Origin: a virus
DNA length: 64,000 nt
Virus record (IMG/VR): IMGVR_UViG_3300046328_000321
Location: 49,369 to 113,368 of that record
Direction: 5' to 3' (one strand)
The position numbers were made by a program, and so were the translations under genes. Below are positions 7,970 to 43,711 of this stretch, piece by piece (position 1 is the stretch's first letter; each line of letters opens with the position of its first letter). The notes under the pieces were generated by a model. That model saw nothing but the letters and a program-made list of their open reading frames with translations, searched no databases and was not told the origin of the DNA.

Positions 7970-8361
7970 ATCAATTAAATTTATTTACCAAACAGACAGG
8001 TAAACCCAAAAACAATTTACTAAAACCAGTTCTATCTCCTTCTAATATTAAACCCACTGCTTCAGGTTTATTTTATACAAGTATTGATAAAACATATAGT
8101 TGGGCCAATCGAATAAGAACTAACTATTGTTTTACGATTAAGGATAAAATTTCATTTGGAAAAGTTAAAATAGTTGAGTTGATTTTAAACCAAGATATTT
8201 TATCTGCTGAAGAATATAGTAAGCTTTCTAAATGGGAAAAAAGAAATGTAGATCATTGGTTAAATGAAGATAAAACAAAAGCCATGATTAAAACACCTAT
8301 GACAGTCAGAGTTCTGACAGAAACAGAAGCTTGGTACTACTGGGTAACTAAAGATTTTTAA
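7966..8361 (+). CDS. Hypothetical protein
   Basis: ATGA-coupled to the upstream ORF; followed by a terminator hairpin. Confidence 0.6.
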   Translation: MNQLNLFTKQTGKPKNNLLKPVLSPSNIKPTASGLFYTSIDKTYSWANRIRTNYCFTIKDKISFGKVKIVELILNQDILSAEEYSKLSKWEKRNVDHWLNEDKTKAMIKTPMTVRVLTETEAWYYWVTKDF

Positions 8362-8415
8362 AATAAATAAACATATTTTACAAGACTGAGCCACATTTGG
8401 CTCAGTCTTGTATAT

Positions 8416-8682
8416 TTATTTTTTTACATTATCATTCTGCTGCCATTTATCATCAATTGTGGCAAACCCTATATATGTTCCCACCACACCCATAACAAAA
8501 ATATAAAAAGGACCAGCAACAGCACCTAATTGCGTATTGTTGCTATATAACAACAGCAATGGAAATCCTAAACCAGCGAGTAGTGATAACCAAGCCATTC
8601 GTCTTCTATTTCTCCATCTGTCTTGTTGCATATAACCTCTTTGAAAATAATGAGTATACTTTATACTCAAAAAATTTATCAT
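8416..8682 (-). CDS. Small two-TM membrane protein, holin-like
   Basis: Basic RWRNRRR followed by two hydrophobic helices. Confidence 0.5.
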   Translation of the reverse strand: MINFLSIKYTHYFQRGYMQQDRWRNRRRMAWLSLLAGLGFPLLLLYSNNTQLGAVAGPFYIFVMGVVGTYIGFATIDDKWQQNDNVKK

Positions 8683-13640: not shown

Positions 13641-13667
13641 GGGCGGATGGCGAAATAGGTAGACGCA
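13641..13667 (+). pseudogene. 5' fragment of a Leu-type tRNA (acceptor strand and D arm)
   Basis: GGGCGGA TG GCG AAATAGGTAGA CGC A; complementary acceptor strand TCTGCCC-A-CCA at 14603-14613. Confidence 0.75.
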
Positions 13668-13670
13668 AAA

Positions 13671-14168: not shown

Positions 14169-14191
14169 ATATTTTATTAGAGAACATTGGT

Positions 14192-14521
14192 GGCCCGCTG
14201 ATGAAATTGGTAGACATAACGGAAAACCAGAAAGTTAGTCCGCCTTTACTAGTAATAGTAAAGTAAACTGTGGGTGAACTCAGGAGAATCTAAAGCGCAA
14301 GCCATGATAATCGTGAGCCAAGCTAGAAGTACACTTCTAGAAGGTGCAGAGACTACTGGAAAGGTAAAGTCCTTTTAATAACCAGCTAGAGCGCCCACTA
14401 CCGTAATAGAATTTCTATCGGTAAAGAGATAGTCCATGTCCATTGGAAACTTTGGAACACATGCTTAAAATCCGTCGCTTCCGAAAGGAGCATTCCGGTT
14501 CGATTCCGGAGCGGGCCACCA
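14192..14521 (+). tRNA. trnL: tRNA-Leu(UAA) interrupted by a group I intron
   Basis: Joining 14192-14223 to 14464-14521 gives a cloverleaf: acceptor GGCCCGC/GCGGGCC, anticodon arm ACGGA-CTTAAAA-TCCGT, long variable arm, TTCGATT loop, CCA. Confidence 0.88.
14224..14463 (+). ncRNA. ORF-less group I intron (IC3/trnL-like core), 240 nt
   Basis: P AACTCAGGAGAA, Q AATCGTGAGCC, R GTGCAGAGACT, S AAGAGATAGTCC; P3 GTGGGTG/CGCCCAC; terminal G at 14463. Confidence 0.85.
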
Positions 14522-14543
14522 ATGTTCTCTTCAATCTTTAATA

Positions 14544-14613
14544 CTGCTCGTAGTTAAATGGATATAAAGCTTCTAAGTTTTAGTTCCAAGTTCGATTCCC
14601 GTTCTGCCCACCA
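14544..14613 (+). pseudogene. Chimeric pseudo-tRNA: degenerate Arg(UCU) body fused at the T-loop to the 3' end of the Leu fragment
   Basis: GCTCGTAGTTAAATGGATATAA...CTTCTAA...CCAAG TTCGATT then CCCGT TCTGCCC ACCA; T-stem and acceptor strands do not pair with each other. Confidence 0.6.
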
Positions 14614-14639: not shown

Positions 14640-14716
14640 AGGTCTGTAACTCAATAGGATAGAGTAACTCCCTTCTAAGGAGTAAGTTGCTGGTTCGAAT
14701 CCAGTCAGACCTACCA
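14640..14716 (+). tRNA. trnR: tRNA-Arg(UCU)
   Basis: AGGTCTG/CAGACCT acceptor, ACTCC-CTTCTAA-GGAGT arm, TTCGAAT loop, CCA. Confidence 0.93.
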
Positions 14717-14732
14717 TTTATTAATAAATAAC

Positions 14733-15398
14733 GCCGGTTTAACTCAGTTGGTAGAGTAATCGCCTTAAAAAAAAAATAATGTTTAAAAGGATTGATTATG
14801 TATAAAAATCAAAAGAGAAGATTAGATACTAACGGTTATATAATAGTTCACTGTCCAGAACACCCAAAAGCAATGAAGAACGGGAGTTTTGAAGGATATG
14901 TTTACGAACATGTTTTGATGGCAGAAGAAATTTTGGATAGATCTGTTAAAGAAGGTGAAGTAGTTCACCATCTTGATGAAAATAAAAGTAATAATTCCCC
15001 TGATAATTTATTGATTTTATCAAACCCAATGCATGTTAAACTTCATGGTTGGTTAAACAAACATGAAATAAAACCTAAAGAAAAACAAGAAGAGCGAATC
15101 AGATTAGGTTGTATCAGATGTAAAACATGTGAAAAACCAATTTTACCTAATTTAATATACTGTTCTCCTCAGTGCACATTCTTTGATAAAAGAAAATATG
15201 ATCATCCGAATAAAGAAACTTTGACTCAAATGGTCTGGTCTGAACCTACTTCTAAAGTTGCTATGAAATTAGGTGTTTCAGACAAAGCCATAGAAAAACT
15301 TTGTAAGAAATTTGAAGTTGAAAAACCTCCCAGAGGTTATTGGATGAAAAATAAATCAAAAGTGTAAGTCGTCTGTTCGAGTCAGACAACCGGCACCA
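14733..15398 (+). pseudogene. tRNA-Thr(UGU) split at the anticodon loop by an HNH gene
   Basis: 5' half GCCGGTT...ATCGC-CTT (14733-14766); 3' half GTAA-GTC-GTCTG-TTCGAGT-CAGAC-AACCGGC-ACCA (15364-15398); 3' anticodon-stem strand missing. Confidence 0.8.
14798..15367 (+). CDS. HNH homing endonuclease with zinc finger and C-terminal HTH
   Basis: YVYEHVLMAE...VVHHLDENKSNN.PDNL; CKTC..YCSPQC; KVAMKLGVSDKAI..PPRGYW. Confidence 0.88.
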   Translation: MYKNQKRRLDTNGYIIVHCPEHPKAMKNGSFEGYVYEHVLMAEEILDRSVKEGEVVHHLDENKSNNSPDNLLILSNPMHVKLHGWLNKHEIKPKEKQEERIRLGCIRCKTCEKPILPNLIYCSPQCTFFDKRKYDHPNKETLTQMVWSEPTSKVAMKLGVSDKAIEKLCKKFEVEKPPRGYWMKNKSKV

Positions 15399-15416
15399 AC
15401 AAACAAAAAGATTAAA

Positions 15417-15493
15417 GGGTGTGAAGCTTAAGTGGTATAAGCATCGGTCTCATAAACCGGAGATAGTCGATTCGAGTTCGACGGCACCCACCA
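15417..15493 (+). tRNA. tRNA with CAU anticodon (Ile2 or Met)
   Basis: TCGGT-CTCATAA-ACCGG arm, GTCGA-TTCGAGT-TCGAC, CCA; G7-G66 mismatch and A8 are atypical. Confidence 0.8.
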
Positions 15494-28548: not shown

Positions 28549-31380
28549 ATGCCTGTCATACAGGAAATCATTCAGTTTGATGATATGTTTCATAAACTAC
28601 ATCACACACCTACTCTTATTAACCACATAGCTTGCGCCACATTGGAAGATAGGGAGAAGGTAAAAGAAATTCTTACCACTCATCTTAACAGTGATCAGAT
28701 AAGTTTAGTACCTTCATGTCAATGCGGAGCTACTAAAGGTGAATATTCCAAGAGTATGGTTTGTCCCGTCTGTAATACAGAAGTAAAAACTTCTGTGACT
28801 ACAGATATCGAACCAGTAGTCTGGCTGAAGCAACCAGAGAGTGTGGATAAGTTGATCAGTCCTATCTTTCTGATGATGTTAATCAAAAGGTTTACCAAAT
28901 CAGGATTCTCAGTGATCGAATGGTTATGTAATACAAATTACTCTTCGACATCTAAACCTCCTGATAAAGTATTAGCTAAAATCCAGACATGTGGGATTGA
29001 ACGAGGTTATAACAACTTCGTTAGGAATTTTGATCCTATTATGGATTTGTTGTTTTCATTCATTGAGTTTGCTCCTAAAACTCAAAAGTTTGAAATGAAA
29101 CAAGAAGACAAAATAGATCATTTACAACAACTAATCAGAGATCACAGAAACGCGATCTTTAGTGAGTATTTACCCATCCCAAATAAGATCATTTTGATCT
29201 TTGACACCCAGCCATTAGGGACTTATACTGATCCTTCAGTAATGAAAGCTGTGGATGCTATTAACACAATGGTGTCCATTGATCGAGATTTCTATGATCA
29301 GAGTTCAAAAACCAAACAGAACCGTACGATCAAAGCTTTGATGTTACTTTGTGATTTTTATAACGATACCTTATTGTTAATGGCACATAAGCATGGTCAT
29401 TTCCGTAAGCACATGTTTGGTAGTAGAACCAATTTTTCTTTCCGAGCTGTAATCACATCGATTACAGCCGGTAAGAATTATGATGAGATCGAAGCTCCAT
29501 GGTGTATGGCAATCACAGCATTCCGTATTCATTTGTTGAATAAACTTTTGAAATACGGTATGGGTCATAACGAAGGGTTAGGATTTTTGTATAAACATAC
29601 GTACAAACACCATTCTCTTCTGGAAAGATTCATGCAGGAGATGATTGATGAGACCCCAATGAAAGGTATTTTCATTTGTTTGCAACGCAATTAACTATTT
29701 AGGTTGCCTTTATCAGTAATGGTAAAGTAAAATTCTCCTTAATTGACGGGAACATCCTGCTAAAAACTTGTACACCAAACTACAATAGAAATATATGTAG
29801 CGGCCAAGGTAACTACTTGGGTATGGTAAAAGAAACAAGTCTGGGATAATCCGCAGCCGAACTCTTAACCAGAAATGGAAAGAGATGGGTTCAACGACTA
29901 GTCGAAAGACGTAACTCTTAGCAAGAGTGAAACAGGAGACCCCTTTTGTATAAAAGGGTGAAGATATAGTCTGCTCTCGTATGAATAATACGAGCGGGTG
30001 TCGTAGCACACCGGGTAAAGAGAGTAAGCTGTTTAAGCTGAGCGACTTTACTGGACAATGGCCGAGTTTGTTACAAGGGTCAGCTCAACGAGTGAAAATC
30101 ACAAAGTTCAAAACTAACCCTATGGACTTGACTATAGGGATGCACATCTTAACAGTGCGTGCTAATCATTATTGGCATTTAACCAGGTAACTGGTTAAAG
30201 AATCTCTTCGAATTGCTGGAAACTCCTTAGAGTCTCATTACCACTGCGAGCTGTAAAGCAAAGCCACGGTTTAAAAAGTATGAGAATTGGACAATCAGCA
30301 GCGAAACTTCCTACGGGAAGTACGTTCAACGATCATCGGAGTTACGCCCGAGTAGAACCTCAAGCGAGGAAGAAGTGGAGAGCACCCTACTATTTATGAG
30401 GGTGAAGATATGATCTGTTCCTGTATGAAAATACAGGCGGGTGTCTTAGCACACCGAGTAAAGAGAGTAAGCTATTATAGCTGAGCGGCTTTACTGGACA
30501 ATAAGCCAAATGCTGATCAAAAGGTCCTCTTAACTTGCGAAGGTTAAGATGTATTTCCTGAATTGCTGGGAACTCTCGTTAGACTGTTGAACTAAAGCGG
30601 AGTGTGAAAACACAAACGTAAATGTTTGAAAATCAGCAGGTAGAGACAATCAGCAGCTAAGACGCTAAAGACAGTTGTGAAACTGGCTATGCGTAAAGTT
30701 CAACGACTATCCGGTAGCACGGAGTAGACCCATGAGGGTCAAAGTAGGAAACGTCTCTAGGAAGACGGTGATATAGTCTGCTCTCACATGAGAATGTGAG
30801 CGGGTGTCAAAGCACACCGGGTGAGGAATCGAAAGATGGCTTCACTGGACAAAAGGTTTGATGGTAGAGTATTGCCATCTCTAAACATTCTTAACTGCGG
30901 GAAACTCCTTAGAGCTTTGTTGACCAACCTGTGGTAGAAATACACACAGCGGCTGAACTAACTATTCAGATATGGTAAAACTAACAAAGATTGGACAATC
31001 CGCACCGAAGCTCCTAACTAAGTATATTAACATATACTTACATGGAGTGTGGCCAACGACTATCCCGTAAGGGAGTACACTCAAGCGAGTGGAAACAGAA
31101 TGTACCGAAAGGTAAAGATATAGTCTAATCAGATATGAAAGTATCTGGATCCTTAAGCAAGATCGATGAGTAGTAGCGTACTCAGGTTGGTGCTAGAGAG
31201 TTATGGTTTATGGATGCTCTCAACGTATCCATAGCTCTTGATCAGAAAATGTCAGATATGTGGTATCCACTTTCACCGGAGTTCAACATCTTCCAAATGA
31301 CAAAACCATTTCAAGTATCGGGAAACATAGCGATCCCTAAACCTAACATCGCTACCATTTCATCTTGGTTGGAAAACTAG
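28549..31380 (+). CDS. nvRNAP beta' catalytic subunit (phiKZ gp55-like), spliced, ~477 aa; exons 28549-29691, 30062-30163, 30506-30517, 30857-30865, 31213-31380
   Basis: N-terminal zinc ribbon, RKH.FG.R..FS.RAVI; splicing restores QRN-PSL and PNAD-FDG-D in frame. Confidence 0.93.
29692..30061 (+). ncRNA. Group I intron 1 of nvRNAP beta' (370 nt, ORF-less)
   Basis: P1 GCAAT/GTTGC with U.G; P AATTGACGGGAA, Q AATCCGCAGC, R GTTCAACGACTA, S AAGATATAGTCT; terminal G. Confidence 0.92.
30164..30505 (+). ncRNA. Group I intron 2 of nvRNAP beta' (342 nt, ORF-less)
   Basis: P1 GTGCT/GGCAT; AATTGCTGGAA, AATCAGCAGC, GTTCAACGATCA, AAGATATGATCT; terminal G. Confidence 0.92.
30518..30856 (+). ncRNA. Group I intron 3 of nvRNAP beta' (339 nt, ORF-less)
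   Basis: Short P1 GAT/GTC; AATTGCTGGGA, AATCAGCAGC, GTTCAACGACTA, GATATAGTCT; terminal G. Confidence 0.9.
30866..31212 (+). ncRNA. Group I intron 4 of nvRNAP beta' (347 nt, ORF-less)
   Basis: P1 GATGGT/GCCATC; P10 AGAGTATT/GATGCTCT; AACTGCGGGA, AATCCGCACC, CAACGACTA, AAGATATAGTCT; terminal G. Confidence 0.92.
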
Positions 31381-41242: not shown

Positions 41243-43711
41243 ACTGAAACTTCAATATGTGGGTATACAAGGACTTAATTCTTACTGTATGCATAATTCA
41301 TCATCACGAGCTGTGATGTTTTCTTCTCACATTGGACAACGTCTGGTAATTGAAGGAGCTCAACAGAAACTTGTACAAACTGGGCTTGAACAAGAATTTG
41401 GTAAATATACGTTCAATGTCAAGATGCCTGAGAATGGTCGTATTGTTGCTATCTTAGACAGGTATCCTCGTGGTGTAGGTAGTAAATCTCTTAATTTCAA
41501 TCCAGAGACCTATGTCTTCTTTGAACGTGAAGACAACAAGCAAGTAGATTATATTCTCATCCCGTACAAAGCTCAGTTCCATCAGAATTTTGGTTTTAAG
41601 TACAAGATGAATAAGAAAAATATCGGAAAGCTTCAGCCAGGTGCTTATATTGCAAAAGATACTATTTTTGCAGACAGTCCTGCTGTTTCTGACAATGGTA
41701 ATTTCATGTTTGGTATCAATGCCAACATTGCCCTGATGTCCATTCCCTCAGTGGCTGAAGATGGCATTATGATCTCCAGAGACTTTCTACCTAAGTTAAA
41801 GTTCAAGATTTATGATACTCGACAAGTCAACTTTGGATCTAAACAATTTCCATTGAACCTTTATGGTACTTTGGATGAAGTAAAACCATTTCCTGAGATC
41901 GGAGATAAGATTCGAGAAGATGGTATTTTGATGGCTTTTAGAGACTTTAACACAGCTCTGTCTCCTGTTGAAATGTCTAAGATGGATTTAATGGAAGTAG
42001 ATCACACTTTTGATGAATGTGTATATGTACGAGGTGGTGTGGGTACTGTGGTTGACATTAAGATTACCAGAAACAACTCACCTATTAAGAACATGCCTGT
42101 GGAAATGTCATGTTATCTGAACCGTTACTGGGAAGCCAATCAAGCTTTTTATAAGAAAGTTATTGATTTAGAAGCCGGTCTGCGTAAAGATAACCGAATG
42201 AAATTTGGAACCACTGATATTTTAACAACATCAAAGTTTGATAAATTAGTTTATGAGGCTATGGTGCATACTAACCATAACTTCAATCAGTTTAAACAAC
42301 CTCTTCAACTCCAATCACGTAAGTCTACTGTAGACGAATACCAGATACAATTTACTATTGAATACACCATTGAACCCTGTGAAGGATTCAAATTGACTGA
42401 TAATCACGGTTTTTACTAGCCGCTTTTGACAGAGATGTCAATCGATCATTTTCCTAATTGCGGGGAACCACCTAAAGCTTCATTGACCAACTTAGTTACG
42501 AAAGTAAGTTAAGGGCTACGCTAACTACGTAGGTATGGTAAAACTAATGAAGATATATGGGCAATCCGCACCGAAGCTCCTAACTAAGTATATTAACATA
42601 TACTTACATGGAGTGTGGCCAACGACTATCCCGTAAGGGAGTAGGCTCATGAGAGTCGAAATGGAAAGCGTCCTACTGTTGAACAGAGGATGAAGATATA
42701 GTCTGTTCCTACATGAAAGTGTGGGTGGGTGTCACAGCACACCGGGTGAAGAATCGAAAGACGGCTTCACTGGACAAAAAGGGAAAAGGTGTTATTTGTA
42801 AAGTAGAAGAACCTGAGAACATGCCTGTCGATGAAAATGGCAACCGTGCCGACATCGTCATGGATGCAGCTTCTACTATCTCACGTATGAACTTAGGCAG
42901 GCTTTACGAGCAACACATGGCATCTGCCTTGCGCGACGTTACTCAAAATGTTCGCATGTTGTTTGGATTTGAACGATTGAAACCAACATCCATTAAAGCT
43001 GAGAATTTGCTAGACAGTTTTCCAATTCAAAAGATCGAAGAAGCTCATCAGTACGTGTTAGGTTTCTATAACCTTATTTCAGAAAAGCAATATAACTTTT
43101 ATTCTAAACTGACAGATCCTAAGCAAATTGCCGAGCATATCTGTGATATCATATCCGATCACGTTTATGCATATATTCCTATTGATAAACAGATCAGTAG
43201 TAAAGATATCGTGAAACGCATCGAGAATTCCATATACAAACCCGTTTATGGAAAAATTACCTATCGAGGTAATTCTGGTGAGGTCGTGCTTACTGAACGA
43301 AATGTGCGCATTGCTCCTTTATACATGATGTTATTGGAAAAAATCGCTGATGATTGGACAGCTGTAGCCACTGGTAATCTTCAGCTACATGGTTTACTGG
43401 CTCAGGTCAACAGACGTGAAAAGCATTCAAGACCTCATAGGAACACTCCTGTTCGCACCATCGGTGAAACAGAGGGACGTTTATTTGTAGGTTATTGTGG
43501 AAGAGAAGCGGTCGCTGAGATGTTGGATCGTTCAGGTAATCCTCTTGTACAAAGACACATGACTAGGAACATTCTTGAAGCCAATCGTCCAACAAATATC
43601 AATGAGATTGTAGATCGTAACTTGGTTAACTACGGTAATACCAAGTCTGTACAGATCATCAACCATATGTTTACTTGTATGGGTTTTAAAACCAAATACG
43701 TTCCAGAATGA
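41229..43711 (+). CDS. nvRNAP beta subunit (phiKZ gp71-73-like), spliced, ~703 aa; exons 41229-42410 and 42782-43711
   Basis: SSSRAVM, EDG; splicing restores KLTDNHG-GKGVIC; SRMNLG and GETE motifs. Confidence 0.92.
42411..42781 (+). ncRNA. Group I intron of nvRNAP beta (371 nt, ORF-less)
   Basis: P1 CGGT/GCCG with U.G; AATTGCGGGGAA, AATCCGCACC, CAACGACTA, AAGATATAGTCT; terminal G. Confidence 0.92.

Follow-up and report, generated by a model that had tools for sequence, protein, structure and literature searches.

A group I intron at position 31/32 of a phage tRNA-Leu(UAA) gene with a predicted A-U pair and bulged G at its 5′ splice site

The U·G wobble at the 5′ splice site is usually regarded as the single sequence rule that group I splicing strictly obeys. 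Published biochemistry holds a G:U pair with the U on the substrate strand to be a strict requirement (PMC6155759), and the closest characterized intron, that of Anabaena tRNA-Leu, needs both a pyrimidine at position −1 and the guide G (PMC12355055). Ribozyme engineering, for trans-splicing and for making circular RNA, and intron-finding software have been built on this rule. Can an intron that carries an A-U pair in place of the wobble be spliced, and if so, what marks its 5′ splice site? The question is raised by a split class II tRNA-Leu(UAA) gene of a gut phage, which lies in two exon pieces at positions 14192-14522 (+) of the 64,000-base stretch of DNA that we analysed (the window). The contig from which the window is taken is viral, comes from a human gut metagenome, is 113,368 bases long with a G+C content of 36.9%, and is estimated by CheckV to be ∼ 43% complete. 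A preliminary description of the sequence had placed an intron at tRNA position 31/32 and offered three readings of it: a new insertion position with a non-canonical A-U splice site, cleavage one nucleotide later to give an 8-nt anticodon loop, or a non-functional intron.

The 5′ exon opens with the acceptor strand GGCCCGC; a D stem of 3 bp, whose loop is AAUUGGUAGA, and A26 lead to ACGGA, which represents tRNA positions 27-31 (14219-14223). The 3′ exon begins with the anticodon loop CUUAAAA (14464-14470) and continues through UCCGU (14471-14475), a long variable arm, the T arm and the acceptor strand GCGGGCC to the discriminator A14519 and an encoded CCA. The insertion point is between A31 (14223) and C32 (14464), where the anticodon stem meets its loop. 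ARAGORN missed the split gene when run on the unspliced window and called tRNA-Leu(taa) once 14223 was joined to 14464. A scan of viral contigs for TGGTAGACATAACGGA gave 77 loci, of which ∼ 60 are uninterrupted phage tRNA-Leu(UAA) genes with TGGTAGACATAACGGA followed directly by CTTAAAATCCGT. Across the junction these intronless homologues read ...GACATAACGGA and then CTTAAAATCCGT, and all of them have the 7-nt anticodon loop CUUAAAA. Deletion of 14224-14463 from the window restores the intronless sequence. The same deletion slid one base either way yields a different sequence, and the 31/32 junction is therefore unambiguous. The homologues and the ARAGORN call on the joined exons thus fix the location that had been proposed for the intron; the coordinates given for the join of ACGGA (ending at 14223) to CTTAAAA (from 14464) check, and the normal 7-nt loop that it restores is the one seen in the homologues.

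The intron matches the Rfam model RF00028 at 14208-14456 with 62.4 bits (E = 1.9e-13; gathering score 50), the ends of the match being approximate because the model does not position P1 or the terminal G. The structure was tested on an alignment of 40 sequences and 415 columns in which P1, the P1 extension, P2-P8, P7 and P10 were checked by hand. Paired cells amount to 96.5% in this alignment, against 78.8% in shuffles and 35-45% when the partners are slid. Compensatory double changes are found at 41 of the 58 pairs, and the observed values were not reached by any shuffle. P3, P4-P5, P6 and P8 covary across the 40 introns, P7 and J8/7 are the same in all of them, and the window copy forms every one of the 62 consensus pairs. 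These substitution patterns indicate that the core is under strong structural selection. At the downstream end, the last intron base is an invariant G preceded by a P9.0-like helix, in which three of four pairs covary and 85% of cells are paired, a score that no shuffle reached; one of the pairs varies between A-U (22), G-C (9) and G-U (4). Judged by this covariation, the helix fixes the predicted 3′ end of the intron at the terminal G. The positions of the exons, the intron elements and the neighbouring endonuclease gene are collected in Table 1.

Table 1. Features of the split tRNA-Leu(UAA) gene, its intron and the adjacent HNH gene (window coordinates).
Feature	Position	Strand	Description and basis
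Free-standing HNH endonuclease gene, 165 aa	13671-14168	+	3′ end 23 bases before the tRNA; phrog_14913 'HNH endonuclease', E = 8e-19
5′ exon	14192-14223	+	Acceptor strand, D arm, anticodon-stem 5′ strand; last base A31; sequence and identical 5′ half in ∼ 60 intronless phage genes
P1 exon strand CGGA	14220-14223	+	Pairs with UCCG 14239-14242; predicted splice-site pair A14223-U14239; position-28 covariation
Group I intron	14224-14463	+	240 nt; terminal G (omega G) 14463; Rfam RF00028 and 40-sequence alignment
P1 extension hairpin	14225-14236	+	AAC 14225-14227 with GUU 14234-14236; A14224 faces A14237
Internal guide AGUCCG	14237-14242	+	UCCG, P1; G14238, bulge; A14237 and G14238, P10
P2 hairpin	14244-14263	+	8 bp, GUAA loop; double changes at all 8 pairs across the family
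P3 5′ strand	14270-14275	+	Covariation
P4-P5 domain	14279-14317	+	Covariation
P6 hairpin	14323-14340	+	Covariation
P7	14351-14355 with 14430-14434	+	Invariant in 40/40
J8/7 AAAGAGA	within 14351-14434	+	Invariant in 40/40
Extra hairpin between P7 and P3′	14356-14385	+	Covaries
P3 3′ strand	14393-14398	+	Covariation
P8	14399-14423	+	Covaries
P9.0-like pairing enclosing P9 hairpin	14435-14438 with 14460-14463	+	CAUG with the last four intron bases, CAUG; covariation
3′ exon	14464-14522	+	Anticodon loop, 3′ stem strand, long variable arm, T arm, acceptor strand, discriminator, CCA; sequence and ARAGORN on joined exons

What identifies the element as a group I intron is present: the RF00028 score, a P3-P8 core including the P3/P7 pseudoknot and J8/7, the P1/P10 guide and the omega G. 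The J6/7-P7 and J8/7 segments of the window, GUGCAGAGACUA and AAGAGAUAGUC, presumably resemble those of Anabaena and Azoarcus. The U(−1)·G wobble at the 5′ splice site is absent from this family; it is a near-universal feature of group I introns and not part of their formal definition, and the intron is thus classed as a group I variant.

Collections of viral, metagenome and genome sequences were scanned by pattern and yielded 40 distinct introns at the 31/32 site; the patterns demanded a G followed by CTTAAAATCC, which limits the variation that the family sample can show at the 3′ junction and at U39. Where they align, the relatives share 67-83% identity with the window copy. They come from IMG/VR phage contigs (L208, L315, L318 and L321), from many environmental contigs and from seven Burkholderiales genomes, two of which belong to cultured species, Curvibacter microcysteis RS43 and C. 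cyanobacteriorum HBC61. Only three of 401 genomes sampled from the bacterial family of Curvibacter gave full-length BLAST matches, which shows a patchy distribution at BLAST sensitivity and not absence. When annotated phages were searched with BLAST, only core similarity (∼ 80% over 95 nt) to introns of crAss-like and Flavobacterium phages was found, none of them in a tRNA. A generic J6/7-P7 pattern search was rejected, because its matches were many unrelated introns, with no close relative among them; matches to the search pattern in Nostoc and other genomes proved to be chance matches in coding DNA. One family member (L401:236-605, reverse strand) has the loop of the extra P7-P3′ hairpin enlarged by an insertion of ∼ 100 bases, the core being otherwise intact. 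Introns with the same extra hairpin (CUGGAG...CUUAAUAACCAG) also split protein-coding genes in phage contigs L312, L314, L324-L327, L326 and L180, and L314 carries two copies.

The guide region, TTAGTCCG (14235-14242), had been proposed to pair continuously across the ligated junction with A31 opposite a U. Throughout the family, exon positions 28-31 are paired with the guide GUCC(C/G). The pair formed by position 28 is G:C in 33 and C:G in seven of the 40 members; this exception-free covariation fixes the register of P1 and confirms the proposed register, with A31 opposite U. The splice-site pair is A31-U in 40/40 and a U·G pair in none; being invariant, it draws no support from covariation of its own. 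The G directly 5′ of the pairing U is equally invariant (40/40), and it refines the proposed pairing, being a conserved single-base bulge and not part of a continuous helix. With this G bulged, intron positions +2, +3 and +4 are paired in 32, 28 and 29 of the 40 introns through many pair types, whereas the continuous helix pairs them in only 8, 10 and 7. The first intron base is U in 14 introns, A in 13, including the window, and G in 13, and is never C. In 24/40 it can pair with the base that precedes the bulged G (U-A 14, G-C 6, A-U 4), a level reached by one of 2000 shuffles. On this comparative evidence, the predicted P1 is a 4-bp exon helix ending in A-U, followed by one bulged G opposite the scissile bond and then by an extension of 3-4 bp. 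The P10 pairings are also well represented in the alignment, with G-C in 38 of 40 rows and A-U or G-U in 30 of 40, and a 2-bp P10 forms in 85% of cells; in the window, the possible pairs are A14237-U14465 and G14238-C14464.

Other placements of the splice site were tried and rejected. If P1 is shifted by one base to create a G30·U wobble, the helix fails in the seven CGGA members, in which C28 would face C. If the 5′ splice site is instead moved to a U, the nearest one upstream is U25 in the D stem, and no 5′ strand of the anticodon stem is left. A viral scan for members with a base other than U at tRNA position 39 gave 95 chance matches, none with the intron, and in that scan no family member with another 31:39 pair was found.

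We consider it likely that the intron functions as a ribozyme, uses a non-canonical 5′ splice site and splices accurately after A31, the option of the preliminary description that the covariation and the A31-U pair in 40/40 support. In this model, the guide UCCG would pair with the exon end CGGA and so mimic the 3′ strand of the anticodon stem, and exogenous G would attack the bond after A31, the catalytic step being one that we infer. A31 would lie in a Watson-Crick A-U pair beside the invariant bulged G14238, which would be placed where the wobble G is normally recognized, with the P1 extension helix on the other side of the bulge. For the second step, the bulged G and A14237 would pair with C32 and U33 as P10, while the terminal G14463 would be held by the P9.0-like helix. 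The exons would then be joined to read ...ACGGA followed by CUUAAAAUCCGU, and the anticodon stem would re-form with its normal 7-nt loop CUUAAAA. The tRNA dictates an A at position 31, and the 31/32 subfamily probably accommodates it in some such manner. More tentatively, we suggest that a Watson-Crick A-U pair with a bulged G might constitute a second natural mark of 5′ splice sites, in which the bulged G would replace the wobble G in docking P1 and would later pair in P10.

The ordinary rules could be retained if the cut were made one base downstream, after the first intron base and facing the conserved G, to leave either an 8-nt loop or a 7-nt loop and an intron that does not end in G. The 14 introns that begin with U could indeed form a wobble with the invariant G in this way. 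However, the corresponding base in the window is an A, and with U, A and G in equal shares across the family a conserved wobble is absent. Even in the members with U, the bulged register sets this base opposite the A that lies 5′ of the G, where other members show G-C or A-U pairs. The G at the intron end is invariant and held by a covarying helix, and the intronless homologues uniformly have the 7-nt loop, both of which speak against the later cut. We regard this second option of the preliminary description as very unlikely. Accurate splicing after A31 might alternatively be non-autonomous, with a host or phage protein or the folded body of the tRNA compensating for the missing wobble. In vivo, many group I introns depend on protein cofactors, and the exon helix of P1 has only 4 bp and would compete with an anticodon stem of the same sequence. 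The family nevertheless spans unrelated phages and Burkholderiales chromosomes, which makes a shared dedicated cofactor improbable, and no conserved neighbour gene was seen other than the sporadic HNH gene. Dependence on such help seems quite unlikely to us; it overlaps with the preferred explanation, a ribozyme cleaving after A31, and does not exclude it.

It is also unlikely, in our view, that the intron is dead or splices poorly. The split gene would in that case be a pseudogene, retained only because the adjacent HNH endonuclease can no longer cut a target site that the insertion has disrupted. Consistent with this, HNH genes and remnants of tRNAs are scattered across the locus, and the canonical U·G, mutation of which cripples well-studied introns (PMC6155759; PMC12355055; accessible text of bioRxiv 10.1101/2020.01.27.920355), is missing. 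Against it, the compensatory changes run throughout the catalytic core of 40 diverged sequences and point to selection on the fold, the window copy is intact in all of its consensus pairs, and both exons keep perfect tRNA features. Moreover, a second tRNA-Leu(UAA) went undetected in three intron-carrying bacterial genomes, a check by BLAST and patterns and not a full tRNA census. In two Curvibacter genomes and a related MAG, searches by pattern turned up no tRNA-Leu(UAA) lacking the intron; with the exons as BLAST queries, the two Curvibacter genomes gave the intron-bearing gene, a paralogous tRNA-Leu(CAA) and nothing else. On the phage contig, 33% of the leucine codons are UUA, more than any other, and the contig, at its ∼ 43% completeness, contains no other tRNA-Leu(UAA). 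Because the core has been kept by compensatory change, both exons are perfect and no other tRNA-Leu(UAA) was detected, the intron probably works; the non-functional intron of the preliminary description is disfavoured, as is the reading of the split gene as an assembly error.

The classical tRNA-Leu(UAA) intron (Leu.3Ug) has the same host gene, is likewise small and ORF-less, and forms a short P1 from bases of the anticodon arm. The host gene is where the match ends as far as location is concerned: the classical intron is inserted between U34 and A35 and uses a U·G pair, whereas the present one lies between A31 and C32, has A-U and a bulged G, and carries the extra P7-P3′ hairpin. The Williams survey examined ∼ 80,000 bacterial genomes at eight junctions, including 31/32, and its accessible text describes 21 types of tRNA group I intron (bioRxiv 10.1101/2020.01.27.920355). 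In that text, raw calls without U(−1)/G are accounted for as four errors or as 72 'Leu.3Cg' introns, position −1 is U or C only, and an A(−1) class is absent. As described there, 'Leu.3Cg' of Proteobacteria resembles the present family in being a sizeable natural class of tRNA-Leu group I intron that does without the U·G wobble. It differs in having C(−1):G, a Watson-Crick pair with the guide G kept, at loop position 3, whereas here position −1 is a purine, A, paired to U, and the G is bulged. No description of the A-U and bulged G design was found in the searchable literature, the accessible text of which has tRNA introns with U(−1) or C(−1) only. Within that body of text, the 31/32 A-U design would appear to be a previously undescribed form of group I intron.

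A related intron on the reverse strand of IMGVR_UViG_3300001594_000002 (L320, bases ∼ 8000-8500) splits a phage tRNA-Leu(UAA) between U25 and A26. The two introns are alike in their core, in the P7-P3′ hairpin CUGGAGAGG...CCUCUUAAUAACCAG and in their host gene, and in both the base that pairs with position −1 sits 5 nt before P2. Unlike the window copy, the L320 intron lies at the junction of the D stem and the anticodon stem and has a canonical U·G (exon GACAU, guide GUGUC). It ends ...GAUG before AGCGGACUUAAAA. The lineage can therefore use the wobble mechanism.

A natural family that combines a working-looking core with A-U and a bulged G would show that the U·G rule can be bypassed and would provide a simple design for doing so. 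If the bulged G is truly a substitute for the wobble, introns would be freed from the need for a U at the insertion site and could colonize the ends of helices, tRNA 31/32 being an example. Since the dedicated survey, in its accessible text, scored only U or C at −1 (bioRxiv 10.1101/2020.01.27.920355), some phage and Burkholderiales genomes that carry such introns may seem to lack tRNA-Leu(UAA).

The HNH gene upstream of the tRNA (Table 1) contains no Pfam domain in its 165-aa ORF. Homologues with 52, 52 and 38% identity are located directly upstream of intron-bearing tRNA-Leu genes in the unrelated contigs L428, L335 and L336, and a weaker homologue lies ∼ 1 kb upstream in L368 and L370; 36 of the 40 family members have no such neighbour in the flanking DNA available. 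Linkage of an endonuclease gene to the intron in independent genomes, by which a homing cassette is recognized, was thus found. The arrangement fits a mobile cassette spread by the HNH endonuclease beside the tRNA: the enzyme would cut intronless tRNA-Leu genes, and the intron would shield its own, donor copy from cleavage. Collaborative homing of this kind is known from T-even phages and from cyanophage psbA. As in those systems, the group I intron has no ORF and the HNH gene stands beside it and not within it; several unrelated contigs show the same pairing. The difference is that the target here would be a tRNA gene, and that the cleavage specificity is a prediction. T4 mobE/I-TevIII is a published case of a free-standing endonuclease paired with an intron (PMC2790892). 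The recurrent HNH link would add an example in a tRNA gene to endonuclease-driven cassette spread in phages.

Several further features of the locus deserve mention. The leader of the split tRNA-Leu (14179-14191, AGAGAACATTGGT) is perfectly complementary to its trailer (14519-14531, ACCAATGTTCTCT), a pairing that lengthens the acceptor stem to a 20-bp helix and buries the CCA. It was not seen in the relatives checked, and could be a processing signal or the edges of an inserted cassette. The HNH gene and the split tRNA-Leu are together flanked by the two ends of another tRNA-Leu-like gene (13641-13669 and about 14570-14613). Its 5′ end reads GGGCGGA UG GCG AAAUAGGUAGA CGC A, its 3′ end consists of a T arm and UCUGCCC A CCA, and the acceptor strands pair with one G·U; the two ends have neither an anticodon arm nor an intron core between them. 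No such tRNA shell is present in three relatives with the same HNH gene. In a Burkholderiales MAG (L345, identical to the L497 sequence), a tRNA-Leu(UAA)-like 5′ fragment, GCGCGGGTGACGGAACAGGTAGACGTAGCGGGCTTAAAAG..., lies ∼ 230 bases upstream of the intron-bearing tRNA-Leu; it has no matching 3′ stem strand and may be the remnant of a displaced resident gene.

Downstream of the split gene in the window, a tRNA-Arg(UCU) (14640-14716) is followed, in the region 14733-15490, by a tRNA-like 5′ half (GGTAGAGTAATCGCCTTAA, at ∼ 14750), by a second HNH gene (14792-15367; Pfam HNH_3, 6.9e-8) and by a tRNA with the loop CUCAUAA (15417-15490), which scores 47.5 bits with Rfam and was missed by ARAGORN. 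Farther along, four Rfam group I introns (68-88 bits) are arranged in tandem at 29691-31147, with exons of only ∼ 40-160 bases between them, and another Rfam group I intron is found at 42401-42725. The whole contig holds nine group I introns at the Rfam level.
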